From Panacagrimonas sp. (GTDB lineage Bacteria; Pseudomonadota; Gammaproteobacteria; Nevskiales; Nevskiaceae): 32,000 nucleotides of DNA. Position numbers and translations under genes: made by a program. Where the stretch lies: contig JAJFBP010000018.1 in NCBI GenBank assembly GCA_020697055.1, positions 10,730-42,729 on the forward strand, written 5' to 3'. The notes under the pieces were generated by a model. It saw nothing but the letters and a program-made list of their open reading frames with translations. It ran no database searches and was not told the DNA's origin. This document shows positions 2,994 through 20,621 of the stretch, piece after piece (position 1 is the first letter of the stretch; every line of letters starts with the position of its first letter).

Positions 2994-5135
2994 TCAACCC
3001 ATCAGCCCCCAGCTCGCGAGCTTCATCTTGATCATCACCCAGATGAACTTGGCCGCCGAACGGATCTGGTCCCAGGCGCTGGGCTGGTAGCGCGCCCGCT
3101 CGCGCAGGAAGTGGCGGATGGACTCGAGATCCGCGTCCTCGATCTCCGCGAACGGCGGCATGCCCCGGGCCATCAGCGCGCCGTCGCGTACGACCGAGGC
3201 AAAGCCTTCCGCCGACAGCGGCACCGGCGAGGCGCGCAGGTCCGGTGCCGAGCCTCCCCCGACGGCGGCGACGCCGTGGCAGATCGTGCATTTCTCGCCG
3301 TAGACCCACTGTCCGCGCCTGACCTTGGCGGCATCGACGACGAACGCCGGATCGTCCACCGGCGTGACGGCCTGCGTCGGCGCGGCCGACGCAGGCAGCG
3401 GCATCCTGGCGTCGAGTGCGAACACCAGCAGCCGACGCGGATGTTCGCGTCCGACCCAGCCGTGCTGCGCCGTGAGCGAACCCATCAGCATCTGCCCGCC
3501 GGCCCAACCCGCGAGCACCGCGACGTACTGCTTGCCGTCGAGCTCGTAGGTGATCGGCGGCGCCTGCGTGCCCACGCCCAGATCGTGGCTCCACAATTCC
3601 GCGCCGGTGTCGGCGTCGTGCGCAACGAAACGCCCGTCGGCCTGGCCCTGGAACACCAGTCCGCCGTGCGTCGACAACACGCCGCCGCCGGTGGCCCCGG
3701 GCGTCGGCACGCGCCACGCCTCTTTTTGCGTGACCGGATTCCAGGCGAGCAGCGAGCTGCTGCCCGCTTCCTTCGGGATGTCGTCGAAGAACGCCTTGAC
3801 GCCCAACGGCCCTTCCTTGAGCGGATCCCAGTTCGCGCGCGTGATGCCGCGCGCGTCGTAGTAGCCGGCCATCTCGCGCGCCGGGATGTACGTCAGTCCC
3901 GTGTCGGGGCTGTACGACATCGGCTGCCAGTTGTGCGCACCGCCCGGCCCGGGCCAGATCATCGCCTCGTTGCCATCGAAGCGCGCGCCGCGCACTTCGA
4001 CCGGTCGACCGGTGACGAGATCGACCCGCTCCGCCCACGTGACCTTGGCGATCTTCTCGGCCGAGATCAGCTTTCCATCCTCGCGATCGAGCACGTAGAA
4101 GAAACCGTTCTTCGGCGCGTGCAGCAGCGCCTTGCGCGGTTTGCCGTCGAGCCGCAGATCGGCGAGCACCATGTCCATCGCCGAGTTGAAGTCCCAGGTC
4201 TCGCCGGGCGTGGTCTGGTAGTGCCACACGTACTCGCCGGTGTCGGCGTCGAGCGCAACGACGGAACACAGGAAGAGGTTGTCGCCGCCGCCCGGACTGC
4301 GCAGCGACTGGTTCCACGGCGAGCCGTTGCCGGTGCCCAGGTACACGCGGTTGAACTCGGGGTCGTAGGTCATCGCGTTCCAGACCGTGCCGCCGGCGCC
4401 GTGCTTCCACCAGTCGCCCTTCCAGGTCTTGGCCGCCATCTCCATCGCGGGATTCTCGAAACCCTTCGACGGATCGCCCGGCACGGTGTACCAGCGCCAC
4501 GCCTGCTTGCCGGTGTTCGCGTCGTAGGCGGTGACGTAGCCGCGCACGTCACCGAAGTCGGCGCCGCCGTGGCCGATCAGCACCTTGTCGTTGAACACGC
4601 GCGGTGCGCCGGTGATGTAGCGCTTGTCGCCGGGCTCGCCTGTCTGCACTTCCCACGCGAGCGTGCCGTCCCTGGCCTCGATCGCGACGAGGCGTCCGTC
4701 CTGCACGCCGACGAAGATCCGGCCCTTCCAGAACGACAGGCCGCGGCTGCCCCAGGCCATGCGCATCTTCCTGGGATCGCACTTGGGGTCGTACTTCCAC
4801 AGCAGCTGGCCGGTGCGCGCATCGACCGCGTGCACCACGCTGTAGCCGGCGGCGAAATAGAGGACGCCGTCGACCGCCACCGGCGCGGTCGAGACGTTCC
4901 ACATCTCCGGCAGCTCCATCGTCCAGGCCAGGCCCAGTCGCTTCACCGACGTGCCATCGATCTGCGCCAGCGGGCTGAAACGCTGCTCGCTGAAGGTGCG
5001 GCCCCAGGCCGCCCAGTTGCGGCCGTCCGACTCGTTGGCGAGCGTGTCCTGGTCGACCTGCGCCCAGGCCGGAACGAACAGCGTGGCGGCGGAGCAGAGC
5101 GCGAGCGCGATGCGGGTCAGACGCGAACGAATCAT
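2994..5135 (-). CDS. PQQ-dependent dehydrogenase with C-terminal c-type cytochrome domain (quinohemoprotein alcohol-dehydrogenase-like)
   Basis: 713 aa with the signal peptide MIRSRLTRIALALCSAATLFVPAWA. Repeated W-containing beta-propeller motifs are typical of PQQ dehydrogenases (..RGYVTAYDANTGKQAWRWYT.., ..TWDFNS..). The C-terminal haem-binding motif is CTICHG, with a downstream Met. Confidence 0.93.
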   Translation of the reverse strand: MIRSRLTRIALALCSAATLFVPAWAQVDQDTLANESDGRNWAAWGRTFSEQRFSPLAQIDGTSVKRLGLAWTMELPEMWNVSTAPVAVDGVLYFAAGYSVVHAVDARTGQLLWKYDPKCDPRKMRMAWGSRGLSFWKGRIFVGVQDGRLVAIEARDGTLAWEVQTGEPGDKRYITGAPRVFNDKVLIGHGGADFGDVRGYVTAYDANTGKQAWRWYTVPGDPSKGFENPAMEMAAKTWKGDWWKHGAGGTVWNAMTYDPEFNRVYLGTGNGSPWNQSLRSPGGGDNLFLCSVVALDADTGEYVWHYQTTPGETWDFNSAMDMVLADLRLDGKPRKALLHAPKNGFFYVLDREDGKLISAEKIAKVTWAERVDLVTGRPVEVRGARFDGNEAMIWPGPGGAHNWQPMSYSPDTGLTYIPAREMAGYYDARGITRANWDPLKEGPLGVKAFFDDIPKEAGSSSLLAWNPVTQKEAWRVPTPGATGGGVLSTHGGLVFQGQADGRFVAHDADTGAELWSHDLGVGTQAPPITYELDGKQYVAVLAGWAGGQMLMGSLTAQHGWVGREHPRRLLVFALDARMPLPASAAPTQAVTPVDDPAFVVDAAKVRRGQWVYGEKCTICHGVAAVGGGSAPDLRASPVPLSAEGFASVVRDGALMARGMPPFAEIEDADLESIRHFLRERARYQPSAWDQIRSAAKFIWVMIKMKLASWGLMG

Positions 5136-7097: not shown

Positions 7098-7100
7098 CCT

Positions 7101-7802
7101 TCAGCCCGCAGCGATGTTCTCCGACGCCATGCGCTGCGCGCCGGTCACGATCATGCGCAGCATCACCACCGTCTGTTCGAGGATCGCAGCGTGATGCTCG
7201 CGCGGCAGATCCAGCGCGCTCGCACCCATCGCGAACACCAGGCGCGTGATCGCCTTGGCGGCGAGCGCCGGTTCCGCGATCGGTGAGTTGTTCGCCCTGG
7301 CCAGGCGCACGAGGTCCACGCACAGCTCGTCCTCGAAGAAGCGCAGTTCGCGTTCGACCGCGCGCTTGAACGCCTCCGAGCCGGTGTTGCCCTCGCGCAG
7401 CAGGATGTGCAGGAACTTCTCGTCGGCGCCGAGCTGCTCCATGAACGATTCGAGCGACGTGCGGATCACGCTGCGCTCGGCCGATGCGCGGTGCCGCGCG
7501 TGGCCGATGATCTTGCGCAGGCTGCGGCCGGCCAGATCGATCAGCGCGATGGCCAGCTCGTCGGTATCGCGGAAGTGACGGTAGAAGCTGTTGGGCGCGA
7601 TGCCGGCCTCGCGGGCGATCTCGCGCAGGCTCAGCGTCGAGATGCTGCGGTGTGGGCCGACCAGGCCCAGCGCGGCGCTGATCAGGTCCTCGCGGGAAAT
7701 TGTCGGACGCCGTCCCGGACCGGTGCCCGCGGCGCCGGCCCGCCGCTTCCCTGCGCCGGATCCGCCCCGCGCTTTCAGTGACTTGGCTGCCATGCGGTGC
7801 AT
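7101..7802 (-). CDS. desT: TetR-family repressor of the FabR/DesT type (unsaturated fatty-acid regulation)
   Basis: The segment ..STLSLREIAREAGIAPNSFYRHFRDTDELAIALIDLAGRSLRKI..SVIRTSLESFMEQL..FLHILLREGNTGSEAF.. aligns closely with E. coli FabR as I remember it. The gene is divergent from a reductase/desaturase pair, as in Pseudomonas desT-desCB. The start is taken at ATG 7802 (ATG 7793 is also possible). The track start at 7847 would run through the AT-rich operator region. Confidence 0.88.
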   Translation of the reverse strand: MHRMAAKSLKARGGSGAGKRRAGAAGTGPGRRPTISREDLISAALGLVGPHRSISTLSLREIAREAGIAPNSFYRHFRDTDELAIALIDLAGRSLRKIIGHARHRASAERSVIRTSLESFMEQLGADEKFLHILLREGNTGSEAFKRAVERELRFFEDELCVDLVRLARANNSPIAEPALAAKAITRLVFAMGASALDLPREHHAAILEQTVVMLRMIVTGAQRMASENIAAG

Positions 7803-7818
7803 GATATACGGCCATTTA

Positions 7819-7832
7819 TATACATATGTATA
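7819..7832. promoter_or_regulatory. Perfect 14-bp palindrome TATACATATGTATA in the desT/desC divergent intergenic region (candidate operator)
   Basis: Read directly; the sequence is its own reverse complement. It sits in the only AT-rich stretch of this part of the window, between the divergent starts at 7802 (-) and 7887 (+). Confidence 0.4.
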
Positions 7833-7886
7833 GACATGTGTAATCACATCTGTGCATCATCGCCCTGAATCTACCGTCGTCCCTCC

Positions 7887-8960
7887 ATGTCCCGCCTCCT
7901 GCCCCGCTCCTGGCTCAGCCCGTTCGTGTCGCCCGCCGTGTTCGATTTCTGGGCCGCCCGCCTGCGCCCGGAAGCCTCGTGGGACCGATGCCTGGCGCGC
8001 GTGGTGTCGCGCAGCGTCGAGGCGCGTGACGCCGTGACGCTGGTGCTGCAGCCCAACCGCCACTTCGCGGGCTTCCGCGCGGGGCAGCACGTGAACGTCG
8101 GCGTCGAGGTCGACGGGGTGCTGCAGACGCGCAGCTACAGCCCGTCGGATGCACCGCGCGCCGATGGTCGCGTGTCGATCACCGTGCGCAACGTCGAGGG
8201 CGGCAAGGTCAGTTCGCACCTGTGCCTGCACACGCGCGTCGGCGACGTCCTCGAACTCGGCCCCGCCTACGGCGAGATGACGGCCGTCGACGGACCGCGC
8301 CTGTTCTGCGCTGCCGGCAGCGGCATCACCCCGCTGGTCAGCCTCGTGCGGGCCGCGGCCGAAGCGCCGACCGCGCTCGACCTGGACCTGGTCTATTGGG
8401 CGCGCCGTCGCACCGACCTGTGCTTTGCCGATGAACTGCGCGAGATGGCCGCGCGCACGCCGGGCCTGCGCGTGCACTTCGTCCTGACCCGCGAAGCCGA
8501 ACTCGAAGCCGGCGAATACGCCGGCCGTCCGAGCGCCGGATTACTGGACCGCCTCGTGCCCGATCACGCGCAGCGGACCGTCAGCGCCTGCGGGCCGGCC
8601 GGCTTCGTCGATTCGCTGCGCGCGCTGCTCGACGGCCGTTGCGCCGGCTTCCACGCCGAGAGCTTCACGCCGCCCGCGCCGATCGAGCCGACCGACGTCA
8701 CCGGCACCGTGCGGGTGGAACTCGTGCGCAGCGGCCGCACGCTCGAGGTGACCGCCGGCACGCCGCTGCTGGCCGCGCTCGAAGCGCAGGGCCTGAAACT
8801 TGCGTACGGCTGCCGCATGGGCCTGTGCAACACCTGCGCGTGCGGCAAGCGCGAAGGCACGACCCATAACGTCCTCAACGGCGAGTTCGACGGCGAGCCG
8901 CGCAGCGCGCTGCGCCTGTGCATCAACCGCGCCGCTTCCGACCTGATCCTCGATCTCTGA
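7887..8960 (+). CDS. desC: Ferredoxin-NAD(P) reductase-type oxidoreductase with C-terminal 2Fe-2S ferredoxin domain (DesC-like electron donor for the desaturase)
   Basis: 357 aa. The FAD-binding RSYSPS motif, the NAD-binding CAAGSGITPL motif and the C-terminal plant-type 2Fe-2S cysteines CRMGLCNTCAC..LC are present. The gene ends 11 nt before the desaturase gene. Confidence 0.9.
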   Translation: MSRLLPRSWLSPFVSPAVFDFWAARLRPEASWDRCLARVVSRSVEARDAVTLVLQPNRHFAGFRAGQHVNVGVEVDGVLQTRSYSPSDAPRADGRVSITVRNVEGGKVSSHLCLHTRVGDVLELGPAYGEMTAVDGPRLFCAAGSGITPLVSLVRAAAEAPTALDLDLVYWARRRTDLCFADELREMAARTPGLRVHFVLTREAELEAGEYAGRPSAGLLDRLVPDHAQRTVSACGPAGFVDSLRALLDGRCAGFHAESFTPPAPIEPTDVTGTVRVELVRSGRTLEVTAGTPLLAALEAQGLKLAYGCRMGLCNTCACGKREGTTHNVLNGEFDGEPRSALRLCINRAASDLILDL

Positions 8961-8971
8961 TTCCCGATCCC

Positions 8972-10084
8972 ATGGCTTCCGCGATCCGTCCCCTGTCCGC
9001 CTGCGACCTCGACGCCTTCGGCGCCGAGCTCGACGCCCTGCGCGCGCGCACCGTCGCCAAGATCGGCGAGGAGGACGCGCGCTACATCCGCCGCGTGGTG
9101 AAGGTGCAGCGCTACATGGAGGCCGCCGGCCGCGTGCTGCTGTTCGCCAGCGCGTTCCCGGTCGTCGGCTGGCTGCTGTGCTGGCCGCTGGGGACGCTGC
9201 TGCTGGGTGTCTCCAAGATTCTCGAGAACATGGAGATCGGCCACAACGTGATGCACGGCCAGTACGACTTCATGCGCGACCCGCATCTGAACGGCAAGAC
9301 CTACGAGTGGGACATCGTCGGAACCTCCGATGCATGGCGCAAGACGCACAACTTCAAGCACCACACCTACACCAACGTCCGCGGCATGGACGACGACATC
9401 GGCTACGGCCTGCTGCGACTGTTCCCCGAGCAGCGCTGGCGCCCGTTCTTCCTGGCCCAGCCGATCGTGGCGATCGTCTTCGCGCTCGCGTTCGAATGGG
9501 GCGTGGCGATCCAGGATCTGGAGCTGGGCAAGTACCTGGCCGGCCGCAAGAGCAAGGAACAGCTCAAGCGCGAGTGGACGCCGGTGGCGCGCAAGATGCG
9601 TCGCCAGCTGATCAAGGACTACCTGGTGTTCCCGCTGCTCGCCGGTCCCTTCTTCCTGCCGGTGCTTGCGGGCAACTTCGTCGCCAACATCATTCGCAAC
9701 CTGTGGACGTACACCGTGATCTTCTGCGGGCACTTCACTGCCGACGTGCACCTGTTCTCGAAGAGCGTGGTGGAGAACGAAACGCGCGGGCATTGGTACT
9801 GGCGCCAGATCCTGGGCTCGTCGAACCTGCGCGGCGGAAAACTCTTTCACGTGATGACCGGCAACCTCAGCCACCAGATCGAGCACCACCTGTATCCGGA
9901 CATCCCGGCGTGGCGCTACGAGGGCCTGGCGCGCGAAGTACGCGCCATCTGCGCGCGCTACGGCGTGCCGTACAACACCGGCCGCATGTCGTCGCAGTTC
10001 GCGCAGGTGGTGTGGCGGATCTTGCGCCACGCGCTGCCCAGCCGGCCGGCTCGCGCGCCGGCGATCGACGCACTGCCGGCGTGA
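8972..10084 (+). CDS. desB: Membrane acyl-CoA (fatty-acid) desaturase, DesB/DesA3-like
   Basis: Three His boxes are present: HNVMHG, HNFKHHTYTN and HQIEHHLYP. Hydrophobic segments are present. The ATG at 8972 (MASAIRPL) follows the desC stop. Confidence 0.92.
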   Translation: MASAIRPLSACDLDAFGAELDALRARTVAKIGEEDARYIRRVVKVQRYMEAAGRVLLFASAFPVVGWLLCWPLGTLLLGVSKILENMEIGHNVMHGQYDFMRDPHLNGKTYEWDIVGTSDAWRKTHNFKHHTYTNVRGMDDDIGYGLLRLFPEQRWRPFFLAQPIVAIVFALAFEWGVAIQDLELGKYLAGRKSKEQLKREWTPVARKMRRQLIKDYLVFPLLAGPFFLPVLAGNFVANIIRNLWTYTVIFCGHFTADVHLFSKSVVENETRGHWYWRQILGSSNLRGGKLFHVMTGNLSHQIEHHLYPDIPAWRYEGLAREVRAICARYGVPYNTGRMSSQFAQVVWRILRHALPSRPARAPAIDALPA

Positions 10085-10088
10085 TGCG

Positions 10089-10943
10089 ATGCGCGCCTGG
10101 ACGCTCGGCGTGCTGGTATTGGCAACGCTGATCGGGGTCGCGGCCTGGCACACGCTGTATTGGGGCGCCGAGCTCGAACCGGCCGATTTTGCGTACCCGG
10201 GTGCGCCGTCGCAGGTCTCCTGCGCGAAGGCAGCACCCGCGACGGCCGATCTTCCGCGCGTTCGCGTCCGCGCCCCGCGCAACTACCGCGCCGATCACGC
10301 GCACGGGCTGCTCGTGGTCTTCAGCCCGGCCGGATTCGCTCCGGCACTGACCGAACGCTTCACGGGACTGACGCGACGCGCGACGGCGCAGGGCGTGATC
10401 GTCGCGTACGTCGGCAGCAGCCCGCTGAGCGCCGAACTGGCATCGCGCCTGGTGCAGGTGCCACAGGCGGTGGCGCGCAACTGGTGCATCGATGCCTCGC
10501 GCATCGCCTTCACCGGTCACTCGGACGGCGGCACGCTGGCGCAGGTAGTGGCGTTGCAGGCCGCCACGCCCGGCGCGCTGCAGCCGCGTGCGATCGTGGC
10601 GAGCGGCGCCGGCCTGCTCGAATCGGACTTCGGCACGCTCGACTGCCCCGTATCCCGTGAACTCGACGTGCTGATCCTGCACGGCCGCAACGATCGGCAT
10701 TTCCCCGACTACGGCGCATCGGCGACACGCGCCTGGGCGCGATGCCTGGGCTGCGCGCCCGATCCCGTCACCGACGCGTTCGATTGCCAGCACCACGCGG
10801 GCTGTCGCGGGCATCTGACGTTCTGCCAGCACGACGGCCGCCACTGGAACTGGCCCGACCTGTTTCGTCAGACCACGGTCGATGCGGCAGGTCCGTCCGG
10901 GGCTCCTTTGGGGCATGGCGACGGTACCGGCGGAGGCGTATAA
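10089..10943 (+). CDS. Alpha/beta-hydrolase esterase (PHB-depolymerase/LpqC-like), N-terminally membrane-anchored or secreted
   Basis: 284 aa with the hydrophobic N-terminus WTLGVLVLATLIGVAAW and the nucleophile elbow GHSDGG. The gene starts 4 nt after the desB stop. Confidence 0.75.
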   Translation: MRAWTLGVLVLATLIGVAAWHTLYWGAELEPADFAYPGAPSQVSCAKAAPATADLPRVRVRAPRNYRADHAHGLLVVFSPAGFAPALTERFTGLTRRATAQGVIVAYVGSSPLSAELASRLVQVPQAVARNWCIDASRIAFTGHSDGGTLAQVVALQAATPGALQPRAIVASGAGLLESDFGTLDCPVSRELDVLILHGRNDRHFPDYGASATRAWARCLGCAPDPVTDAFDCQHHAGCRGHLTFCQHDGRHWNWPDLFRQTTVDAAGPSGAPLGHGDGTGGGV

Positions 10944-10994
10944 GGGCGGAGGTTGAACGATCGGTTTTTCCAAGCCGGCCCTGGAGTGAGAACG

Positions 10995-11747
10995 ATGAGC
11001 GCCCGCCACGTCGCCACCGCAGAAGTCGCCCCGAAGGCTCCGTGGGTGCAGCTCGCCCTCGTGCTGTTCGGCACCGGAGCGGTCTTCGCGATCTATCGCG
11101 TGTACCAACAGACGACGGCGTTCACGCTGGGCCTCGACTACTTCTCCGAGGACTTCCAGACCTACTGGATGAACCTGCTCTACGCGCAGCTGCCGATCCT
11201 GACGCTGCTCGGCGCCGGCATCGTCGGCCGGTTGTGGATGACGCGCGAACGCAATCCGGCGGCGGTGAGCCCGCGCGAGGAATTGCGCCGCCACTACGTG
11301 GTGCTGTCGCAGATCCTGGTGTTCGCGGTCGTCGCCTACCTGACCGCATCGATCTTCACCGAGGCCGACGCCGCCTGGCACCAGGTCACGATCCGCGACA
11401 CCGACTTCACGCCGACCCACATCGCGCTGTTCTACTTCGGCATCCCCTGTTTCATCATGGCCGGCGTCGTCGCCTTCACCTACGCGCACACGCGGCTGCC
11501 CAAGTTCATGAACCGCGTTTCGCTGCCCTTCGCGATCGTCGTGGCCGGGCCGATCATGATCATGCCCAACCTGGGTCTGAACGAATGGGGCCACACCTTC
11601 TTCTACGCCGAGGAACTGTTCGCGGCGCCGATCCACTGGGGGTTCGTGCTGCTGGGTTGGGCGACCTTCGCTGCCGGCGGACTCGTGGTGCAGCTGCTCA
11701 CCCGCATCGTCGAGCTCACCCGCGTAGCCGGTCGCCCCGAAGTCTGA
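10995..11747 (+). CDS. xmoC: Copper membrane monooxygenase subunit C (AmoC/PmoC family)
   Basis: The ATG at 10995 lies 8 nt after GGAG. The motifs EADAAWHQVTIRDTDFTPTH (D-x3-H-x12-H) and NEWGHTFFYAEELFAAPIHWGF (N-x3-H-x13-H) are near-identical to PmoC/AmoC consensus motifs. The protein is polytopic. Confidence 0.93.
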   Translation: MSARHVATAEVAPKAPWVQLALVLFGTGAVFAIYRVYQQTTAFTLGLDYFSEDFQTYWMNLLYAQLPILTLLGAGIVGRLWMTRERNPAAVSPREELRRHYVVLSQILVFAVVAYLTASIFTEADAAWHQVTIRDTDFTPTHIALFYFGIPCFIMAGVVAFTYAHTRLPKFMNRVSLPFAIVVAGPIMIMPNLGLNEWGHTFFYAEELFAAPIHWGFVLLGWATFAAGGLVVQLLTRIVELTRVAGRPEV

Positions 11748-11819
11748 GTTTCGCCTCACGCGACGTCCGCGGAATCCGCCATCGACCAAGAGCGGAGCCG
11801 CACAGGGAGGAATCACCGC

Positions 11820-12596
11820 ATGGCCGAAGACTCGGCGCCACCGCCGGCCTCACCGTCGACCCAGAGCGGGGTCGCGAACCTCGCTGAACAGCGGCGCGCG
11901 TACATCCAGTTCGACATGCTGGTGATTCCGCTGATCGTGCTGCTGTTCATGGGCATCTTCAGCTTCCACTTCGCGCTGCTGGTCGGCGACTGGGACTACT
12001 GGGTCGACTGGCGCGATCGCCGCTGGTGGCCGCTGGTGACGCCGCTGTGCCTGGCGGTGTTGCCCGGCGTGTTCGGCTACCTGCTGTGGGAGCGCCTGCG
12101 CCTGCCGCTGGCCGGCACGCTGACGATCCTGTGCCTGACGGTGGCTTCCTGGATCAGCCGTTATCTGAACTTCTACCTGTTCGCGGATTTTCCGATGAAC
12201 ATGGTGTGGCCTTCGACCTACGTGGCGCTGGGCCTGATCTTCGACTGCATCCTGCTGCTGTCGCGCAGCTTCTTCTGGACCGGTCTGGCGGGCGGCTTCC
12301 TGTTCGGCCTGCTGGTGTATCCGCTCAACTGGCCGCTGCTCGCGCCCTACATGGTGCCGGTGGAACTGCACGGGACGATGCTCACCGTGGCCGACCTGCA
12401 GGGCTACGAATACGTGCGCACCGCCATTCCCGAATACGTGCGCAAGATCGAGCAATCCACGCTGCGCACCTTCGGTGAGGCGGTGACGCCGCTGACGGCG
12501 GTGTTCGCCGGGTTCGTCAACATCCTCAACACCTGGCTGTGGATGTGGGTCGGCTACCTCGGCGCCAAGGCCGTGTGGATCCGGAAGATCACGTGA
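11820..12596 (+). CDS. xmoA: Copper membrane monooxygenase subunit A (AmoA/PmoA family)
   Basis: GGGAGG lies 9 nt upstream of the start. The AmoA/PmoA hallmarks GDWDYWVDWRDRRWWP and ..TAIPEYVRKIEQSTLRTFG.. are present. 258 aa with multiple TM helices. Confidence 0.95.
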   Translation: MAEDSAPPPASPSTQSGVANLAEQRRAYIQFDMLVIPLIVLLFMGIFSFHFALLVGDWDYWVDWRDRRWWPLVTPLCLAVLPGVFGYLLWERLRLPLAGTLTILCLTVASWISRYLNFYLFADFPMNMVWPSTYVALGLIFDCILLLSRSFFWTGLAGGFLFGLLVYPLNWPLLAPYMVPVELHGTMLTVADLQGYEYVRTAIPEYVRKIEQSTLRTFGEAVTPLTAVFAGFVNILNTWLWMWVGYLGAKAVWIRKIT

Positions 12597-13813
12597 GCGC
12601 GGTCCTGCGATGGCTGGTCGCGATGGGCCTTGCGCTGGTCGCCAGCGCCGTGGGCGCGCACGGCGAAAAGGCGCAGATGCCGCAGCTGCGCATGAGCACG
12701 GTGCACTGGTTCGATCTCGAGGTCTCGACCACCAAGCTTTCGGTCAACGACGAGATCGTCGTACGCGGCCGCTTCATGCCCTCGATGCACTGGCCCCATC
12801 ACGTCGAATCGATCGAGGACACCGCGTTTCTCAACATCGGCGTCCCCGGCCCCGCGTTCGTGCGCCTGGAATCGCGGGTCAACGGCGTGCCGATGATCCG
12901 CTCGACGCGCTTCTTTCGCGGTGAAACCTACGAATTCATGATCCGCATGAAGGCGCGCAAGCCCGGGCGCTACCACGTCCACCCGCTGATCAACGTCAAG
13001 GGCACCGGCCCGATCATCGGACCCGGCCGCTGGATCGAGGTCGGCGGCGATCCCGCCGCATTTGAACTCAAGGCCAAGACGCTGCTCGGCCGGGAGATCG
13101 ACCTGGAGTCCTACGGCTTCGCCAACGTACTCGGCTGGTCGGCGTTCTGGTTCCTGCTCGGCCTGTCCTGGTTCGTCTACTGGCTGTGGAAGTGCCCGAT
13201 CGTGATCCCGCGCTTCAAGCAGCGCGACGAACTGGGCGTGGACGCCGACCGGATGATCACGCGCACCGATCGCCGCACCGGCCTGATCTACCTGGCCGTC
13301 ACGCTGTGCGCGATCGTCGGCGGCTACCAGTACGCGCAGGCGTCCTACCCGATCACCACGCCGCTGCAGACCGGGCGCGTCGACGTGCCGCCGGCCGATC
13401 CCGGCCCGCGCGTCGTGACGGCCACGATGGTCGAGGCGCGCTACCGAATTCCGGGTCGCAGCTTTCGCATCGAGATGGAAGTGACCAACCACGGGGACAA
13501 GGCGCTCTCGATCGGCGAAATGGCCGCCGGCAACCTGCGCTTCATCAACGCCGCGGTGAAGCCGGTGCAGCCGGCCGACGAGGACGATCTGGTCGCCGTC
13601 GATTCGCTGCGCGTCGAGAACGCGCCGATCCCGCCCGGCGAGACCCGCACCGTCGTGATCTACGCCGACGACGCGCTGTGGGAGACCCAGCGCATGACCA
13701 CGATGATCAAATCGCCCGATGCCAACGTCGCCGCGCTGCTGTTCTTCTACGACACCGACGGCCGGCGCCACCACGTCGAGATCGGCGGGCCGATGATCCC
13801 GGTGTTCGGTTGA
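12593..13813 (+). CDS. xmoB: Copper membrane monooxygenase subunit B (AmoB/PmoB family)
   Basis: The GTG start overlaps the xmoA stop (GTGA). The signal peptide ends ..ASAVGA|HGEKAQMPQLRMSTVHWFDL, which is the PmoB-type mature N-terminus. The HxH motif (RYHVHPLINV) and GTGPIIGPGRWIEVGG are present, followed by two TM helices and a C-terminal cupredoxin-like domain. Confidence 0.93.
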   Translation: MSAVLRWLVAMGLALVASAVGAHGEKAQMPQLRMSTVHWFDLEVSTTKLSVNDEIVVRGRFMPSMHWPHHVESIEDTAFLNIGVPGPAFVRLESRVNGVPMIRSTRFFRGETYEFMIRMKARKPGRYHVHPLINVKGTGPIIGPGRWIEVGGDPAAFELKAKTLLGREIDLESYGFANVLGWSAFWFLLGLSWFVYWLWKCPIVIPRFKQRDELGVDADRMITRTDRRTGLIYLAVTLCAIVGGYQYAQASYPITTPLQTGRVDVPPADPGPRVVTATMVEARYRIPGRSFRIEMEVTNHGDKALSIGEMAAGNLRFINAAVKPVQPADEDDLVAVDSLRVENAPIPPGETRTVVIYADDALWETQRMTTMIKSPDANVAALLFFYDTDGRRHHVEIGGPMIPVFG

Positions 13814-14403
13814 TGCGGCAGACCCTCGCGGCACTCCTGCTGCTGCTCTGCGCGCCGGCCGCGCTCGGCCACGGCGGCGTGTCGATGGAGGACGACACCT
13901 GCATCATGCGCATCGGCCTGTTCCGTGCGCACTTCACCGGCTACCAGCCCGAGACGCGCGCAACGCAGGAGTTCTGCGAGGACATCCCCGAACTGGGCAA
14001 GGCGATCATCGTCGTCGACTTCATCGACAACGCGCTGCGCAGCTACCAGGTGGAATTCCGCGTGCTGCGCGACGTGCACGAACTGGGGAAACGTGCGCGG
14101 CTCGACGATCTGGGCGACGCCAATGCCATCGACGCAGCGACGTTGTTCAAGCTCGATGCGACGAAGTATCCGAAGGGGACGCTCACCTTCGAACAGCGCT
14201 TCGAACACCCCGGCTGGTACATCGGCGTGCTCAGCGCCCGCGACGATGCGGGGCACACGATCGACTCGGTGTTTCCGTTCCAGGTCGGTGTCTCGCATCC
14301 CTGGCGCTACATCCCGGCGTTCGTGCTCGTGCTCGTCCTGAGCCTTTTGATATACCGCCTGACCGGGCGCAACCTGCCGGCCGCTGCCAAGTCCGAACCC
14401 TGA
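13813..14403 (+). CDS. Exported, C-terminally membrane-anchored protein in the 'D' position of the CuMMO operon (PmoD/AmoD-like by position and topology; homology unverified)
   Basis: The ATG shares 1 nt with the xmoB stop (TGATG). The signal peptide is MRQTLAALLLLLCAPAALG|HGG... A ~150-aa soluble domain with Cys/Met/His residues (DDTCIMRIGLFRAHF, EFCEDIP) is followed by the C-terminal TM helix YIPAFVLVLVLSLLIY. The long upstream extension in the track (13186) is a frame shadow over xmoB. Confidence 0.7.
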   Translation: MRQTLAALLLLLCAPAALGHGGVSMEDDTCIMRIGLFRAHFTGYQPETRATQEFCEDIPELGKAIIVVDFIDNALRSYQVEFRVLRDVHELGKRARLDDLGDANAIDAATLFKLDATKYPKGTLTFEQRFEHPGWYIGVLSARDDAGHTIDSVFPFQVGVSHPWRYIPAFVLVLVLSLLIYRLTGRNLPAAAKSEP

Positions 14404-14406
14404 ACC

Positions 14407-14781
14407 ATGATCCGGTTGCTCTTCGCCGCCCTGCTGATCGCCTTCGGCACCGGCGCCTGGGCGCACGCTGCGCTGACCAAGTCGATCCCCGGCAATCGCG
14501 AAGTGCTGGCGGCCTCGCCCGCGTCCATCCACCTCAAGTTCAACGAGAAGGTCGAGGCGAAGTTCTCGAAGGTCTCGCTCGAGGACGCGCACGGCAAGCC
14601 GGTGACGCTCGGCACGCCGGCCGTGGCCGCCGATGACCCCTATGCCCTGCAGACGCCGGTGACCGGGCCGCTGGCAGCGGGGCGCTACACCGTGCGCTAC
14701 CGCGTGCTGTCGCAGGACGGCCACGTCATCGAACGCTCGTTCGTCTTCACGATCGGGACGCCGGAGACGCCGACCCCGTGA
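14407..14781 (+). CDS. copC: Periplasmic copper chaperone CopC
   Basis: 124 aa. The signal peptide ends ..GTGAWA|HAALTKSIP, giving the CopC-type N-terminal His. The ..VLSQDGHV.. motif is present. The gene starts 3 nt after the upstream stop. Confidence 0.9.
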   Translation: MIRLLFAALLIAFGTGAWAHAALTKSIPGNREVLAASPASIHLKFNEKVEAKFSKVSLEDAHGKPVTLGTPAVAADDPYALQTPVTGPLAAGRYTVRYRVLSQDGHVIERSFVFTIGTPETPTP

Positions 14782-16691
14782 TCGAGGCGTACGCCGCGGG
14801 CGCACGCGCGCTCGCCGCGCTGTGCGGCGCCTACCTGATCGGCACCCCGCTGTTCCTCTTGCGGGCAGGCGCCTCCGATGACCCGGCGGTGCGGGCCTGG
14901 CGCGCGCGCCTGCTTCGCTTTTTCCCGATCGCGGCGCTGGGCCTGCTGTTCGCGCTGCTCGGACTGCTGCACGCGCAGGCCAGCGGCGTCGCGGCCGCAG
15001 TCGCCGACCTGGCGCTGACGCGCGACATCGCATCGAGCACGGCGTTCGGCCGGATCGCGCTCGTGCGACTGGGCCTGGCGCTGCTGCTGGTACCGCTTGC
15101 GATCGGGTGCGCGGTGCGGGCCGGCGATCGCATCTCGATCGCCGCAGTGGCGGCGATGCTGCTCGCGGCCGTCGTCGTCGGCGCCGGCCCGTTGTCGGGC
15201 CACGCCGCGGGCACGGACGTCGCCACGGTGCTGGTCACGCTGCACGTCGTCCACGTGCTGGCGCTCGCCTGCTGGATCGGCGGCCTGCCCGCGTGGATCA
15301 CGCTCGCGCGCGCGGCGCAGCACGACCACGACGGCTCCATCCGGGCGTTTGCCGCGGTCGCGATGACGCGCTTCTCGCGCTTCGCCCTGCCCTGCATGGC
15401 GGTGATCGTGGTCGCCGGCAGTCTGATCGCATTGGAATTCGTGGACGACCAGGGCGATCTGCTCGGCACGCGCTACGGGCGCCTGCTGTGCCTGAAGATC
15501 CTCGCGCTGCTCGCGGTGCTCGCGATCGCCCATCGCCTCCGTACGCGCTGGTTGCCGCGCCTGGACGAACCGGCCGACCTCGACGTCCACGCCGACGGCG
15601 TGCGACGCACGCAGCGTGAAGCGCTGTTCGCGGTGGTGGTGCTGGCGCTCGGCGCGGGCCTGGCGCAGACCACGCCCGCGATCCACGACCAGCCGCACTG
15701 GTGGCTGCCGTGGCGCCTGTCGTTCGATGCGAGCGCGGAAGTGCCCGGCTCGCGCATCGCGGTGCTCGTCGGCGCCGGCCTTCTGATCGCCGCGGCGTGG
15801 TGGGCGGCGCTCGGGGCGCGATCGGGTCGCGGCGCGCGGAGGGGCATCGGCGTTCTCGGCCTCGCGGGCCTCGGCACCGCGGCCTGGGGCCTGTCGGTGC
15901 CGGCCTATCCCGACACGTTCCTGCGCTCGCCGGTGCCCTACCTGACGCTGTCGATCGACCAGGGACGCCGGGCGTTCGCGCAGAACTGCGTGGCGTGCCA
16001 CGGCACCGGCGGCCTGGGCGACGGCGTGCTCGCGAGCACCTTGCGCAGGCCGCCCGCCGACATGAGCGCGCCGCACACCGCGCTGCACACCGCCGGCGAC
16101 ATGTACTGGTGGATCACGCACGGCATGCCCGAGGGGCCGATGCCGGGATTCGGCTCCGTGCTCGATGACGAGCAGCGCTGGGACACCGTGAACTTCCTGC
16201 GCGTGTTTTCGCAGGGCTTCCAGGCGCGCGTGCTGTCGCCGCGGATCGTGCCGCGCGGTCCCTGGCTCGGCGCGCCGGACTTCTACTACGCCACCGCCGA
16301 CGGCGGACGCGCGCAGCTCAAGGACCTGCGCGCCGTGCGCGCCGCGCTGATCGTGTTCACCGTCGCCGGGGATCCGCGTTCGCTCGCGCGGCTCGGGGCA
16401 TTGCGCTCACGCGCCGACCCGCGGCTGGCGATCGTCGAACCGACCTCGCCCGACGTGTGGCAGGCCTACCAATTCCTCACGCGCACGCTGGCGGACCGCG
16501 GCGCGCCGGACCGGCTCGACCTGCCGCGCCGCCATGCCGAGTTCCTGGTCGATCGCTTCGGCTACGTGCGCGCGCGATGGCTGCCGGAGGACGATCCGAC
16601 TCACGCCAACGATTTCGATCTCGATGCGGCCGTGTCGGCGCTGGCTGAAGAGCCCGAGATCCTGCCGCCCCCGGATCTGCACCTGCATTGA
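14778..16691 (+). CDS. copD: CopD-family copper membrane protein fused to a c-type cytochrome domain and a C-terminal thioredoxin/peroxiredoxin-like (Cys-less) domain
   Basis: The GTG start overlaps the copC stop (GTGA). The first ~300 aa are polytopic and CopD-like. They are followed by CVACHG..(M) as in cytochrome c, then ..AEFLVDRFGYVRARW.., which resembles the AhpC/TSA/SCO fold. Confidence 0.88.
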   Translation: MIEAYAAGARALAALCGAYLIGTPLFLLRAGASDDPAVRAWRARLLRFFPIAALGLLFALLGLLHAQASGVAAAVADLALTRDIASSTAFGRIALVRLGLALLLVPLAIGCAVRAGDRISIAAVAAMLLAAVVVGAGPLSGHAAGTDVATVLVTLHVVHVLALACWIGGLPAWITLARAAQHDHDGSIRAFAAVAMTRFSRFALPCMAVIVVAGSLIALEFVDDQGDLLGTRYGRLLCLKILALLAVLAIAHRLRTRWLPRLDEPADLDVHADGVRRTQREALFAVVVLALGAGLAQTTPAIHDQPHWWLPWRLSFDASAEVPGSRIAVLVGAGLLIAAAWWAALGARSGRGARRGIGVLGLAGLGTAAWGLSVPAYPDTFLRSPVPYLTLSIDQGRRAFAQNCVACHGTGGLGDGVLASTLRRPPADMSAPHTALHTAGDMYWWITHGMPEGPMPGFGSVLDDEQRWDTVNFLRVFSQGFQARVLSPRIVPRGPWLGAPDFYYATADGGRAQLKDLRAVRAALIVFTVAGDPRSLARLGALRSRADPRLAIVEPTSPDVWQAYQFLTRTLADRGAPDRLDLPRRHAEFLVDRFGYVRARWLPEDDPTHANDFDLDAAVSALAEEPEILPPPDLHLH

Positions 16692-16707
16692 GTCGGCAGT
16701 CGATGTC

Positions 16708-16751
16708 GGGATGCTCCGCCTGTGGCGGACCGGGAAAGCCAGGCGCATCCC
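16708..16751. terminator. Nested inverted repeats between the two convergent operons (candidate bidirectional terminator)
   Basis: The outer arm GGGATGC (16708-16714) pairs with GCATCCC (16745-16751). An inner hairpin TCCGCC-TGT-GGCGGA spans 16715-16729. There is no U-tract. Confidence 0.25.
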
Positions 16752-16766
16752 GCCAATGCGTCACCA

Positions 16767-17099
16767 TCATCCGCAGCACCCGCTCCCCATCCGCAAGCAA
16801 TCCAGTCCATCCAGCGCGATGTGGATCAGCAACCCGATCGCCACGACGCGGCTACGCCGGGGCGCCAGCAGCAGCGCATATACCCCGACGGCCGGCGCGG
16901 TGTGCAGCGGATGAAAGCCCAGGCTGCAGCGTTCGTCCGGCGAATAGACCGGATCGGCGAGCAGGTGATCCACGTCGATGAGCCAGCCGGCCAGCATCAG
17001 CAGCCAGGCGCGCTTCCAGCCGTCGCGATACGCCAGCCGCGCCACCGCCAGCGGTACCAGTGCGTGCAGGACCAGGTGCAGCAGCGCGAAGGCGCTCAT
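16767..17099 (-). CDS. Small integral membrane protein (DUF6122-like by recollection)
   Basis: 110 aa, MSAFALLHLVLHALVPLAVARLAYRDGWKRAWLLMLAGWLIDVDHLLADP..GFHPLH..LLIHIALDGLDC. The ATG overlaps the nadR stop (ATGA at 17096-17099). The 354-aa track ORF is an upstream shadow over nadR. Confidence 0.65.
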   Translation of the reverse strand: MSAFALLHLVLHALVPLAVARLAYRDGWKRAWLLMLAGWLIDVDHLLADPVYSPDERCSLGFHPLHTAPAVGVYALLLAPRRSRVVAIGLLIHIALDGLDCLRMGSGCCG

Positions 17100-18115
17100 C
17101 GCGAAGCCTCGATCTCGAGTCGCCGCGCCACCGCCTGCACGCGCGCTTCGAGCGGCCCGCCGACCCGCAGCACGCGATCGGCGTGCGGTGCCAGCCGTTC
17201 CAGGTACCACGCGTGCTGCCGCGCGCGGAACGCATCGTCGCGACGCGTTCCGTCCTGCACGAAATCGAAGTCCGGCTCGCACAGCACCAGCAGGTCGTAG
17301 TGGCGGTTGGCCAGCTCGATCAGACCCGGCGGCGCCCGTCCGAAATCCTCGAGGCAGTAGAACAGCGTCGTCAGCGGCGTGGTGTCGCCGATCACCAGGC
17401 GACACCCTTCGTCGCGCGCCGCCTGCTCCTCGCGCAGCACCTGCGCCCCGGCGATCGGCGGCAGATCGCCCTCGTCGAGCCGTCCGCCTCGCTCCACCCA
17501 TCGATCGCGTCCGTACTCCTGCGCGCATCGTGCCCGCGGCAGGCGCGCCGCCAGCGCCCGCGCCAGCGTGGTCTTGCCGCTGGACTCGCCGCCGAGCACG
17601 CCGATGCGCGGCACCAGCGACGCGAACACTTCGGGCGCGACGTGCGCGCGGTGTGCGAACGGATCGGTGCGCAGCCGCGACGCGCTGATCGGAATCCGCG
17701 CCCGCGCCGGATCGACCATGACGTGCGCGACGGGGCGGCCGAACTGCTCCGACAGCGCCGCCGCGAATCCGTCGCCGTACGCCTCGCTGGTGAACACCGC
17801 GTCGGGCACGCAGCCGAAGCGGGTCACGCACTGGTCGCCGCAGAAGCGGCGATGCACCGCTTCCGGGTCGTCGTCGTTGTGCGGCAGGCCATCGGCCTGG
17901 TCGAGCACCCGCCAGCGCAGCGCCGGATGACCGGCAAAGCGCGCCTCGAACCAGCGCCGCCGTTCAAAAGGCTCGCAGTGCGCGAACTCCGGCCGCGAAT
18001 AGCTCAGCAGCAGCACCTCGTCGCACCGGGCCAGCGCCGTTGCGATCAGCAGCTCGTGCCCGAGGTGCAGCGGGCAGAACTTGCCGATCACCAGGCCACG
18101 AGCGAAGCGCTTCAT
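17096..18115 (-). CDS. nadR: NadR-type bifunctional NMN adenylyltransferase / ribosylnicotinamide kinase (no N-terminal HTH)
   Basis: 339 aa. VIGKFCPLHLGH is the nucleotidyltransferase (H/T)xGH motif. The second domain carries the P-loop VLGGESSGKTTLARALA. The ATG overlaps the pnuC stop (ATGA at 18112-18115). Confidence 0.9.
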   Translation of the reverse strand: MKRFARGLVIGKFCPLHLGHELLIATALARCDEVLLLSYSRPEFAHCEPFERRRWFEARFAGHPALRWRVLDQADGLPHNDDDPEAVHRRFCGDQCVTRFGCVPDAVFTSEAYGDGFAAALSEQFGRPVAHVMVDPARARIPISASRLRTDPFAHRAHVAPEVFASLVPRIGVLGGESSGKTTLARALAARLPRARCAQEYGRDRWVERGGRLDEGDLPPIAGAQVLREEQAARDEGCRLVIGDTTPLTTLFYCLEDFGRAPPGLIELANRHYDLLVLCEPDFDFVQDGTRRDDAFRARQHAWYLERLAPHADRVLRVGGPLEARVQAVARRLEIEASR

Positions 18116-18669
18116 GCGAGCTGCGCCCGCCAGTGGCGCCACGCGACCAGCGCGTTGATCCAGTACGCCGCGTACAGCGCGGCCGTGACGTACAGCCCGC
18201 GATTGGCGAACAGCGGGATCGCCAGCGTGTTGACCAGCAGCCACACCGGCCAGGTCTCGAGATGGCGCCGCATCAGCAGCAGCTGCGCCACCACGCTGAA
18301 GCTGAGCACCAGCGAATCCACGAACGGTGCATAGGCGTCGGTCCACGCGTGCAGCAGCGCGCCGTATCCCGCGCCGCCCAGCAGGCCGCCGATCGCGCTG
18401 AGCAGCAGCATCCGGCGCGGCGCGCGGGTGATCGCCAACGGCCCGTCGCGATCGGCGCCGTGCAGCCACTGCCACCAGCCGATCGCGCTGGCGACGATGA
18501 AGAACCCCTGCAGGCTTGCGTCCGCGTAGAGCCGCGCGTGCACGAACACCAGCGTGAACAGCGCGCAGCCGAGGATGCCGATCCACCAGGTGTGCACGCT
18601 GTTGCGCCCGGCCAGCAGGATCGAGACCGTGGCCAGACCGTTGGCGGTGATTTCCAGCGGATCGGTCAC
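18112..18669 (-). CDS. pnuC: Nicotinamide riboside transporter PnuC
   Basis: 185 aa, polytopic, with PnuC-typical Trp-rich motifs (..GRNSVHTWWIGILG.., ..AIGWWQWLHG..). The GTG start overlaps the upstream stop (GTGA at 18666-18669). Confidence 0.88.
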   Translation of the reverse strand: MTDPLEITANGLATVSILLAGRNSVHTWWIGILGCALFTLVFVHARLYADASLQGFFIVASAIGWWQWLHGADRDGPLAITRAPRRMLLLSAIGGLLGGAGYGALLHAWTDAYAPFVDSLVLSFSVVAQLLLMRRHLETWPVWLLVNTLAIPLFANRGLYVTAALYAAYWINALVAWRHWRAQLA

Positions 18670-20030: not shown

Positions 20031-20608
20031 TCGCGCGACCACTTGTCCGCCGACTCCTCGGCCGCCTTCCTGGCCAGCGCCTCGCGGATCTCGCGCGCAC
20101 GTTTTTCCGCGGCGCGGCTGGCCGCCAGCAGGCGCTTGCGCTCGACCGCGCTCAGGCTCGAGAGGCGATCGGTCGCCTGCTCCAGCGTCTCGCCCTGCGG
20201 ACGAAAGTCCATGCGCGCCAGCACGACGCGGACCAGCTCTTCGCGCCGATCGGGATCCGCGACGTAGCGCGACGCGTCCGCCGCCTGCGCCAGTCCACCG
20301 ACGGCATCGTCGAACACCTGCACGAGGCCCGGCACCGGCAGCGCGGTCTTCACGAACCAGCGATCCGCGAGCAGCCAGCAGACGACCGCGGTGAGCAGCA
20401 GGCGCGCACGATCGGCCTCGCGGACCGACGACAGGCGCCGCAGCATCGCTTCCGGTGCGGTGTGCCCCACCTGCGCGAACAGATCGTTGACCAGCGCGGC
20501 GGTGTGCACCGTGCCCTTGCCCGCGATCCGCGGCGGCAGCAGGAACTCCGGCGGCAGATCGATCAGCCGTCGCAGCAGGGTTTCGAGCTCGGGTCCGGGG
20601 TTCTGCAT
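20027..20608 (-). CDS. Hypothetical protein (193 aa) with a charged helical C-terminal tail; no family recognised
   Basis: The ATG at 20608 follows GGGAGA in the 13-nt spacer after the radical-SAM stop. Its placement between two recognised genes of the same strand and its stop/start overlap (ATGA) with the downstream gene support it as real. The sequence reads MQNPGPELETLLRRLIDLPPEF... and ends ..AEKRAREIREALARKAAEESADKWSRE. Confidence 0.65.
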   Translation of the reverse strand: MQNPGPELETLLRRLIDLPPEFLLPPRIAGKGTVHTAALVNDLFAQVGHTAPEAMLRRLSSVREADRARLLLTAVVCWLLADRWFVKTALPVPGLVQVFDDAVGGLAQAADASRYVADPDRREELVRVVLARMDFRPQGETLEQATDRLSSLSAVERKRLLAASRAAEKRAREIREALARKAAEESADKWSRE

Positions 20609-20621
20609 GGCATCGATCTCC

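Follow-up and report, generated by a model that had tools for sequence, protein, structure and literature searches.

What does a copper membrane monooxygenase (CuMMO) oxidize in a heterotroph-type bacterium? The question is raised by a 32-kb stretch of DNA from Panacagrimonas sp. (Nevskiales, Gammaproteobacteria), hereafter the window, in which an initial annotation had recognized three adjacent open reading frames (ORFs) at 10995-13813, in the order C-A-B, as the subunit genes of such an enzyme in a GC-rich heterotroph, a description with which the assignment to Panacagrimonas agrees. Here, we found that these same-strand ORFs are the first three of six genes in an operon, xmoC-xmoA-xmoB-xmoD-copC-copD(cytochrome c), which occupies 10995-16691 on the plus strand. 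Thus, xmoCAB is complete as originally delimited, but the operon does not end with it and runs on through xmoD, copC and copD-cytochrome c to 16691. We show below that XmoCAB is a complete CuMMO and that XmoA belongs to a proteobacterial lineage distinct from particulate methane monooxygenase (pMMO) and ammonia monooxygenase (AMO), and we argue from gene context that Xmo is probably a short-chain alkane monooxygenase, acting on C2-C4 substrates rather than on methane or ammonia.

The xmoC gene (10995..11747, plus strand) encodes a C subunit of 250 aa (Pfam AmoC, E 6.8e-80), with a ribosome-binding site, GGAG, ahead of its ATG at 10995. The A subunit of 258 aa (Pfam AMO, E 3.9e-77) is encoded by xmoA (11820..12596, plus strand), whose ATG at 11820 follows the ribosome-binding site GGGAGGA, and the B subunit of 406 aa by xmoB (12593..13813, plus strand), which matched Pfam Monooxygenase_B over model positions 1-380 of 380 (E 4.2e-121). 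The start codon of xmoB is most likely the GTG at 12593, overlapping the xmoA stop as GTGA, and an independent gene caller also called the 406-aa product. In Pfam, C, A and B (PF04896, PF02461 and PF04744) scored 268, 260 and 405 bits, where the cut-offs are 27, 27.5 and 22.7, and all three proteins aligned end to end with solved pMMO or AMO chains at E 1e-63 to 1e-104. For XmoA the alignment with these chains reached E 2.4e-63; the best solved match of XmoC was Methylocystis PmoC (E 8e-71), with the ligands aligned; and XmoB aligned with PmoB of M. capsulatus Bath at E 3.7e-104, with His33, His137 and His139 in register. No frameshift or internal stop was found in xmoCAB.

The metal ligands that had been read directly from the B and C translations held up on realignment with the pMMO structures, and none was lost. 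XmoB carries a predicted signal peptide of 22 residues, MSAVLRWLVAMGLALVASAVGA, which ends in AVGA and is cleaved before HGEK, so that the mature N-terminal residue is H23; the motif A|HGEK aligns to Bath His33 and the motif YHVHP to His137 and His139, giving H23, H128 and H130 as the ligands of the CuB site. In XmoC, the motif DAAWH...PTH (D-x3-H-x12-H) aligns to Asp156, His160 and His173 of the CuC site, with D125, H129 and H142 as the ligands, and the motif NEWGH...PIH (N-x3-H-x13-H) aligns to Asn227, His231 and His245 of the CuD site, with N196, H200 and H214. These nine positions were invariant in 78 XmoB and 69 XmoC orthologues, save for one N-to-D change in XmoC. These results show that XmoCAB is a complete CuMMO in sequence, with every CuB, CuC and CuD ligand present. 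As a separate observation on XmoB, residue 38, equivalent to His48 of Bath PmoB, is kept in the window and is His in 58 of the 78 orthologues, and residue 62, equivalent to Bath His72, is Met in the window. Because the His72 partner is replaced by Met, the Bath-type bis-His copper site is not conserved as such.

We then considered the operon as a unit. The ATG of xmoD (13813..14403, plus strand) overlaps the xmoB TGA as TGATG, copC (14407..14781, plus strand) begins 4 nt past the xmoD stop, and the GTG start of the copD-cytochrome c gene (14778..16691, plus strand) overlaps the copC stop; overlapping start and stop codons such as GTGA and TGATG indicate translational coupling of the operon genes. 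Compared with three relatives, all six genes are under purifying selection, with ratios of nonsynonymous to synonymous substitution rates (dN/dS) of 0.12-0.52 overall, 0.12-0.35 for xmoC, xmoA, xmoB and xmoD (0.16-0.22 for xmoA) and 0.38-0.52 for copC and copD. These data bear on the view that the operon is a silent or decaying acquisition without current function. In favor of it, the GC content of the operon (0.65-0.66) is slightly under that of its flanks (~0.70), and no promoter-like site, nor any sigma-54-like element, was seen in the 51-nt gap 5' of xmoC; the promoter and terminator scans of 7000-17500 as a whole returned nothing exceeding the shuffled expectation. Against it, the ORFs are intact, the ligands invariant, the starts coupled and the xmoCABD genes constrained, and the same six-gene order recurs in many Nevskiales genomes, which makes a functionless operon scarcely credible. 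The operon is intact and not decaying, and its ORF, Pfam and ligand matches lie far beyond chance. A recent horizontal acquisition was also considered and rejected, given that the GC dip is small (from ~0.70 to 0.65), that the operon and its flanks are syntenic with those of P. perspica and that no mobile-element signal was found.

To which lineage does the enzyme belong? A genome scan seeded on two XmoA motifs, with one genome per species, returned 262 confirmed relatives, of which 80 related loci (L001-L080), all in this lineage, were kept for the neighborhood and orthologue work. The closest XmoA homologues came from Nevskiales (Panacagrimonas, Solimonas, Stagnimonas, Sinimarinibacterium, Polycyclovorans, Oceanococcus and Nevskia; 65-90% identity), followed by Burkholderiales (Polaromonas, Rhodoferax, Hydrogenophaga and Acidovorax; 64-72%) and, at a greater distance, by Pseudomonadales, Macondimonas, Thiotrichaceae and metagenome-assembled genomes (MAGs) of Porticoccaceae (45-58%). 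When the library was clustered at 50% identity, XmoA of the window fell in a single cluster, to which the other CuMMO A-subunit clusters were at most 42% identical. A neighbor-joining tree with 200 bootstraps was built with PmoA of Bath and of M. alcaliphilum 20Z, the AmoA of one AMO (PDB 9PXF), Methylacidiphilum PmoA and one Actinomycetota cluster as its references, leaving out verified Haliea, PxmA, HmoA and BmoA sequences. In this tree, XmoA was placed with 99.5% bootstrap in a clade of 30 sequences from Nevskiales, Polaromonas/Rhodoferax/Hydrogenophaga, Pseudomonadales and Porticoccaceae, apart from all of these references, to which it is 32-44% identical. XmoA thus does not nest in the canonical PmoA or AmoA clades, which agrees with the initial annotation, and its proteobacterial lineage is separate from those of pMMO and AMO.

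The placement speaks to two rival explanations of the operon. The first is that it encodes a true pMMO and that the host is an unrecognized facultative or atmospheric methane oxidizer. The match of XmoB to gammaproteobacterial PmoB is indeed strong (E 4e-104) and retains every ligand, but XmoA lies outside the PmoA clade, with 42-44% identity to PmoA of 20Z and Bath, and all three subunits stayed under the cut-offs of the NCBIfam pMMO models (TIGR03080, 248.8 vs 318 bits; TIGR03078, 256 vs 281; TIGR03079, 380 vs 395). The second is that it encodes an AMO used for heterotrophic nitrification or hydroxylamine production. XmoB passed the AmoB_BACT model well (508 vs 336 bits), and every CuMMO tested so far is described in the literature as co-oxidizing some ammonia; XmoA and XmoC, however, remained below the AmoA_BACT (266.7 vs 290) and AmoC_BACT (285 vs 319) cut-offs, and XmoA did not group with the AmoA of PDB 9PXF. 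Moreover, the window is without the multihaem proteins hydroxylamine dehydrogenase (HAO) and cytochromes c554 and cM552: only two CxxCH motifs occur in its ORFs of at least 80 aa, each in a single-haem domain, in agreement with the statement of the initial annotation that hao and cycAB are missing from the window. Since the gene neighbors in the clade also belong to carbon metabolism (see below), we regard an AMO as highly improbable.

The comparison with pMMO of M. capsulatus Bath and M. alcaliphilum 20Z (PDB 3RGB, 7S4H and 6CXH) illustrates both sides. The two enzymes share the three-subunit architecture, identical CuB, CuC and CuD ligands and full-length alignments, whereas XmoA forms a separate clade, the bis-His site is incomplete and no MxaF or XoxF gene lies nearby. 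The CuMMOs encoded by hmoCAB of Mycobacterium and bmoCAB of Nocardioides CF8 likewise occur in non-methanotroph heterotrophs, and the role proposed for them is the same as that proposed here. With reference to work on CF8, these enzymes are reported to oxidize C2-C4 alkanes but not methane. The representative of the Actinomycetota cluster, which stands in for HmoA and BmoA themselves, was 36% identical to XmoA and fell outside its clade.

To narrow down the substrate, we turned to the genes around the operon. The only pyrroloquinoline quinone (PQQ) enzyme of the window is a type II quinohemoprotein alcohol dehydrogenase (ADH) of 713 aa at 2994..5135 on the minus strand, with a PQQ beta-propeller (Pfam PQQ, E 6.6e-83) followed by a C-terminal haem c domain (Cytochrome_CBB3). 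It passed the NCBIfam model of the methanol/ethanol family (TIGR03075, 556 bits vs a cut-off of 480), and its best solved match was ADH IIB of P. putida HK5 (PDB 1KV9; 681 bits), whereas XoxF and MxaF reached ~300 bits. The gene stands 5.9 kb upstream of the operon and outside it, on the opposite strand. P. perspica and another Panacagrimonas each have an orthologue with 82% identity at the corresponding place, and paralogues with 44-47% identity lie directly 3' of xmoD in Polaromonas, Rhodoferax and Hydrogenophaga. P. putida HK5 ADH IIB is induced by 1-butanol. The quinohemoprotein ADH is the probable second step of the pathway and, of all context genes, the one that tells most about it. The earlier statement that the window holds no MxaF or XoxF is literally true over the 32 kb, but it had overlooked this enzyme of the same superfamily.

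We further clustered all ORFs of the 80 loci and annotated the recurrent families, of which 19 were tabulated, 14 with a Pfam assignment. Aldehyde dehydrogenase and quinohemoprotein ADH each recurred in 21 of the 80 loci, acyl-CoA synthetase in 16, thiolase in 14, GMC oxidoreductase in 13 and a MerR regulator in 11, and the gene order in Polaromonas reads aldehyde dehydrogenase / xmoCABD-quinohemoprotein ADH-...-copC-copD. The recurrence of aldehyde dehydrogenase, ADH, acyl-CoA synthetase and thiolase genes beside xmo points to a route from alkane through alcohol and aldehyde to acyl-CoA, which would serve chains of at least two carbons and not methane or ammonia. In addition, similar CuMMOs have been described from alkane-utilizing Polaromonas and Rhodoferax (Rochman et al., 2020, ISME J 14:714). 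In these two genera, xmoCABD has reportedly been linked to induction by C2-C4 alkanes and to growth on them, ethane and propane being assimilated but not methane. As for methane, the methanol/ethanol-family PQQ dehydrogenase nearby and the pmoD-copC-copD arrangement, which is like that of extended pmo operons, would fit a pMMO. The dehydrogenase is, however, of the type II quinohemoprotein kind and not MxaF or XoxF, no C1-assimilation genes were found in the window, the neighbors in the clade serve longer chains, and bacteria with related Polaromonas and Rhodoferax operons are said not to have assimilated methane. A true pMMO is therefore very unlikely in our judgment.

The context also has to be weighed against another small substrate. 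This could be a short-chain alkene, ethylene or propylene having been proposed in the case of Haliea, or an oxygenate, acetone having been shown to be one for the verrucomicrobial PMO3; alcohol and aldehyde metabolism would be linked to it only loosely. CuMMOs are promiscuous, and alkene- and acetone-oxidizing members are described in the literature. The wider clade includes MAGs of Porticoccaceae and Cellvibrionales, the latter being the order of Haliea. Moreover, an esterase-like alpha/beta-hydrolase gene, which could fit a ketone-ester route, lies 51 nt upstream of xmoC. It encodes 284 aa at 10089..10943 on the plus strand, with an N-terminal signal or anchor and weak matches to Pfam Abhydrolase_3 (E 7.5e-5) and to an NCBIfam esterase of the polyhydroxyalkanoate-depolymerase type (E 6.7e-7). 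In 18 of 81 loci a homologue lies no more than 6 kb from xmoA, with position and orientation differing between loci, and the gene is not at this position in P. perspica. As a recurrent neighbor, it may or may not belong to the Xmo system. Among the scanned window genes and the 19 tabulated neighbor families, no epoxyalkane:coenzyme M transferase, epoxide hydrolase, glutathione transferase or Baeyer-Villiger monooxygenase turned up, and the recurrent neighbors belong to a route for primary alcohols, aldehydes and acyl-CoA. An alkene or acetone is thus a possible substrate, though we consider it unlikely.

The reading that we prefer, a C2-C4 alkane monooxygenase, can be put as a pathway. XmoCAB in the inner membrane would hydroxylate a small hydrophobic substrate (most probably a C2-C4 n-alkane) and so form the alcohol, at the expense of O2 and two electrons. 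The periplasmic quinohemoprotein ADH would oxidize the alcohol to the aldehyde, and its haem c would hand the electrons on to the respiratory chain. The carbon would then enter central metabolism by way of aldehyde dehydrogenase, acyl-CoA synthetase and enzymes of the beta-oxidation type; their genes adjoin the operon in sister genomes and not in the window. XmoD, CopC and CopD-cytochrome c may acquire, reduce or deliver copper for Xmo, by analogy with pmoD-copC-copD of extended pmo and amo operons. The short-chain hydrocarbon that had been guessed at first is accordingly still the best candidate, now on the strength of neighbor genes across the clade.

Several points weigh against this reading. 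For no member of the Nevskiales subclade has a substrate assay been reported, and the Solimonas aquatica enzyme has been published as being of "unknown function". In the window, the ADH gene lies on the other strand, 5.9 kb off, with unrelated genes between, and no aldehyde dehydrogenase or acyl-CoA synthetase assignable to the pathway was found in the 32 kb, to which the gene survey was limited within this genome. The subclade joining Nevskiales and Burkholderiales had a bootstrap of only 0.73, and the membership of these Burkholderiales sequences in the alkane-induced lineages of Rochman et al. is unconfirmed. Finally, given that CuMMOs are promiscuous, gene context cannot fix the preferred substrate. 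Polaromonas AER18D-145 is an isolate from uranium tailings and does not belong to the single-cell genomes of Rochman et al.

The related loci show how the arrangement varies around a common core. In Nevskiales, the copies of Solimonas aquatica DSM 25927, Sinimarinibacterium sp. CAU 1509 and P. perspica DSM 26377 belong to the same lineage, with XmoA 72-90% identical to that of the window (90% for P. perspica). The gene order of the window, xmoCAB-xmoD-copC-copD(cytochrome c), recurs in S. aquatica and P. perspica, whereas Sinimarinibacterium CAU 1509 has a multicopper-oxidase pair in place of copCD. The quinohemoprotein ADH, TetR, reductase and desaturase genes are likewise present upstream in P. 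perspica, and, compared with it, the window has an M66 peptidase gene and the esterase-like hydrolase gene inserted. The Polaromonas, Rhodoferax and Hydrogenophaga loci fall in the same subclade, with XmoA 64-69% identical. As in the window, xmoB is followed by xmoD in the Burkholderiales xmoCABD loci, which also contain a copC-copD(cytochrome c) module and with which a quinohemoprotein ADH is associated. Their ADH gene is inside the operon with aldehyde dehydrogenase, GMC oxidoreductase and acyl-CoA synthetase genes adjacent, while the window has it on the other strand, 5.9 kb upstream, and contains no aldehyde dehydrogenase gene. As a side observation on copy number, the MAG SAW216 carries two xmoCAB operons (L009 and L014), whose XmoA proteins are 80% and 85% identical to that of the window, and many other MAGs likewise hold two or three divergent xmoCAB paralogues of this lineage, as seen in NORP120 (L048/L051/L052) and in the sets L043/L050, L047/L057, L055/L061 and L036/L056.

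The fourth gene, xmoD, encodes a membrane-anchored cupredoxin-like protein of 196 aa of the PmoD/AmoD family. It had no Pfam and no NCBIfam match, and each of the 242 homologues in the database either has no name or is called "hypothetical", but it matched PmoD of Methylocystis sp. Rockwell (PDB 6CPD) at E 2.3e-15 over query residues 27-158 (with 13816-14403 as the query; numbering from the ATG at 13813 adds 1). The protein consists of a signal peptide, a cupredoxin-like periplasmic domain and, at the C terminus, one transmembrane helix in the hydrophobic stretch IPAFVLVLVLSLLIY, and its gene lies directly 3' of xmoB in about 69 of the 80 related loci. In 70 orthologues, H20, C30, H40 and C55 were conserved at 100%, and the mature N-terminal His-Gly-Gly and the signature C-x9-H-x14-C were likewise invariant. 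Fisher et al. (2018, PMC6189053) found that PmoD proteins of the Cx9HxnC class bind copper and do not form CuA. XmoD does not match the motif of the CuA-forming PmoD, Cx7MxHxnC: it reads C30-IMRIGLFRA-H40, and the position of Met49 is Arg here and Arg or Lys in 62 of the 70 orthologues. The C-x9-H motif together with Arg or Lys at this position places XmoD in the Cx9HxnC class. Thus, XmoD shares with Rockwell PmoD the overall layout, the two invariant cysteines and the place after the B subunit and before copC-copD, and it differs from the CuA-forming PmoD by C-x9-H, by Arg or Lys for Met49 and by the invariant mature N-terminal His-Gly-Gly. The family was described as specific to methane and ammonia oxidizers, PmoD, CopC and CopD being associated with pmo and amo operons and a pmoD mutant having a copper-dependent growth defect (Fisher et al., 2018, PMC6189053). 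We observed this PmoD-like family in xmo operons of heterotrophs, outside the methane and ammonia oxidizers.

The two remaining operon genes were examined next. CopC is a periplasmic copper-binding protein of 124 aa with a mature N-terminal His (Pfam CopC, E 3.8e-22), and its gene follows xmoD in about 25 loci, the closer ones. The last gene encodes a fusion of 637 aa that joins CopD (Pfam CopD, E 9e-17), a cytochrome c (Cytochrom_C, E 1.5e-12) with one CxxCH motif and a C-terminal domain, an architecture found in the orthologues of 27 loci. The C-terminal domain (~150 aa) is thioredoxin- or peroxiredoxin-like in some orthologues, and one Polaromonas orthologue also matches AhpC/TSA. The haem of the fusion may serve in Cu(II) reduction or in electron transfer. 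Given that cytochrome c-CopD is kept with xmoCABD in 27 loci and that the ADH gene is in the operon in Burkholderiales and nearby here, the haem domains of the fusion and of the quinohemoprotein ADH might carry electrons directly, through the periplasm, from the oxidation of the alcohol back to the monooxygenase, in which case their part would go beyond copper handling and respiration. We find such a route doubtful and give it little credence; if true, it would provide a genetically tractable heterotroph version of the long-debated "direct coupling" answer to the reductant of pMMO in vivo.

Some further observations concern these accessory genes. An orthologue of CopD-cytochrome c lies at 16339-18432 of L026. 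The family as a whole comprised 223 matches at E<=1e-20, Bradyrhizobium proteins among them, which suggests that it may not be confined to xmo operons. In 29 loci, mostly more distant ones, a multicopper-oxidase-like pair (~585 aa and ~239 aa) 3' of xmoCABD replaces copC-copD. The pair was seen in L012, L015, L017, L034 and L039-L075, at about +2.7 to +6 kb from xmoA, with a few Nevskiales among them. With copC-copD in the closer loci and the multicopper-oxidase pair in others, the lineage has two alternative copper accessory modules.

How much of this is new? The initial annotation had called CuMMOs outside methane and ammonia oxidizers few, a statement that the 262 relatives of the motif-seeded scan contradict. 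The proteins are also in NCBI already: sequences identical to XmoC (MCC2657177.1), XmoA (MCC2657178.1, "pmoA1"), CopC, the methionyl-tRNA synthetase (MetRS) and the PQQ dehydrogenase are deposited from a Panacagrimonas sp. MAG, the subunits under the names "methane monooxygenase/ammonia monooxygenase subunit" and "pmoA1". In the literature, Khadka et al. (2018, PMC6215863) gave the Solimonas aquatica operon as a CuMMO of unknown function, Awala et al. (2021) used the same label for the CuMMOs of Polaromonas, Rhodoferax and Solimonas aquatica, and a 2026 survey reported operons of the pmoCAB type from Burkholderiales, Pseudomonadales and Nevskiales MAGs obtained from groundwater. Our literature search returned no paper linking Panacagrimonas itself to a CuMMO; Panacagrimonas MAGs including SAW216 have been discussed as autotrophs and metal oxidizers, SAW216 as an autotroph using the Calvin-Benson-Bassham cycle, and the passages on Panacagrimonas in that study contain no link to a CuMMO. 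The lineage is thus widespread and was recognized before, so that it is not rare and not new, and its proteins are deposited and named; for sister taxa, xmoD and an experimental link to alkanes are likewise on record, so nothing here is conceptually new. What is added is the full operon structure, the recognition of the "hypothetical" fourth gene as PmoD-class with HGG...C-x9-H...C, the nearby quinohemoprotein ADH and the neighborhood analysis across the clade.

These additions have practical consequences. Because pipelines label the genes pmoA or amoA (KEGG K10944-6; NCBI "pmoA1"), metagenome surveys can mistake genomes of this kind for those of methanotrophs or nitrifiers, and placing the operon in a separate lineage tied to chains of at least two carbons guards against this. 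The lineage spans taxa of groundwater, soil and marine hydrocarbon settings and could act as a genuine sink for ethane, propane and butane. Since the cultured P. perspica DSM 26377 and Solimonas aquatica DSM 25927 carry near-identical operons, the question of the substrate is directly testable.

Finally, we examined the other genes of the window. Upstream of the hydrolase gene, at 7101-10084, a minus-strand TetR gene points away from the genes for an FAD/NAD/2Fe-2S reductase (7887-8960, plus strand) and a protein of the fatty-acid-desaturase family (8918-10084, plus strand). We take this arrangement to resemble the desT-desCB acyl-CoA desaturase module of Pseudomonas. The module adjoins xmo only in the Panacagrimonas loci (the window, L001 and L005). 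The reductase and desaturase were considered as an electron supply for Xmo or as an AlkB-like hydroxylase, and this was rejected because the adjacency is restricted to these three loci and the arrangement looks like that of desT-desCB. The module leads closely into the hydrolase gene and xmoC on the same strand, with no terminator predicted, and it may be co-transcribed with xmo. Between the quinohemoprotein ADH gene and the TetR gene, an M66 peptidase of 618 aa is encoded at 5241-7097. Neither P. perspica (L005) nor L001, where the ADH and TetR genes are much closer together, has a corresponding gene, so the peptidase gene looks like a lineage-specific insertion.

The Rfam scan found two tRNAs only, tRNA-His (GTG) and tRNA-Lys (CTT), at 2095-2307 between the phosphoenolpyruvate carboxylase gene and the quinohemoprotein ADH gene. 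Besides the operon and the quinohemoprotein ADH, all that the window encodes is of a housekeeping or unrelated kind: the phosphoenolpyruvate carboxylase, the two tRNAs, MetRS, an Nth-type glycosylase, an acyl-CoA dehydrogenase, pnuC with a nadR-like gene and the TetR-reductase-desaturase module. Past the operon, a run of minus-strand genes at 16767-24300 encodes DUF6122, AAA_28 (NadR-like), PnuC, an AMP-binding enzyme, a 193-aa protein without a Pfam match, a radical SAM protein and a 572-aa protein. Beyond this run lies a gene for a MoxR-like AAA ATPase (24306-25892), with a DUF4197 gene also next to it.

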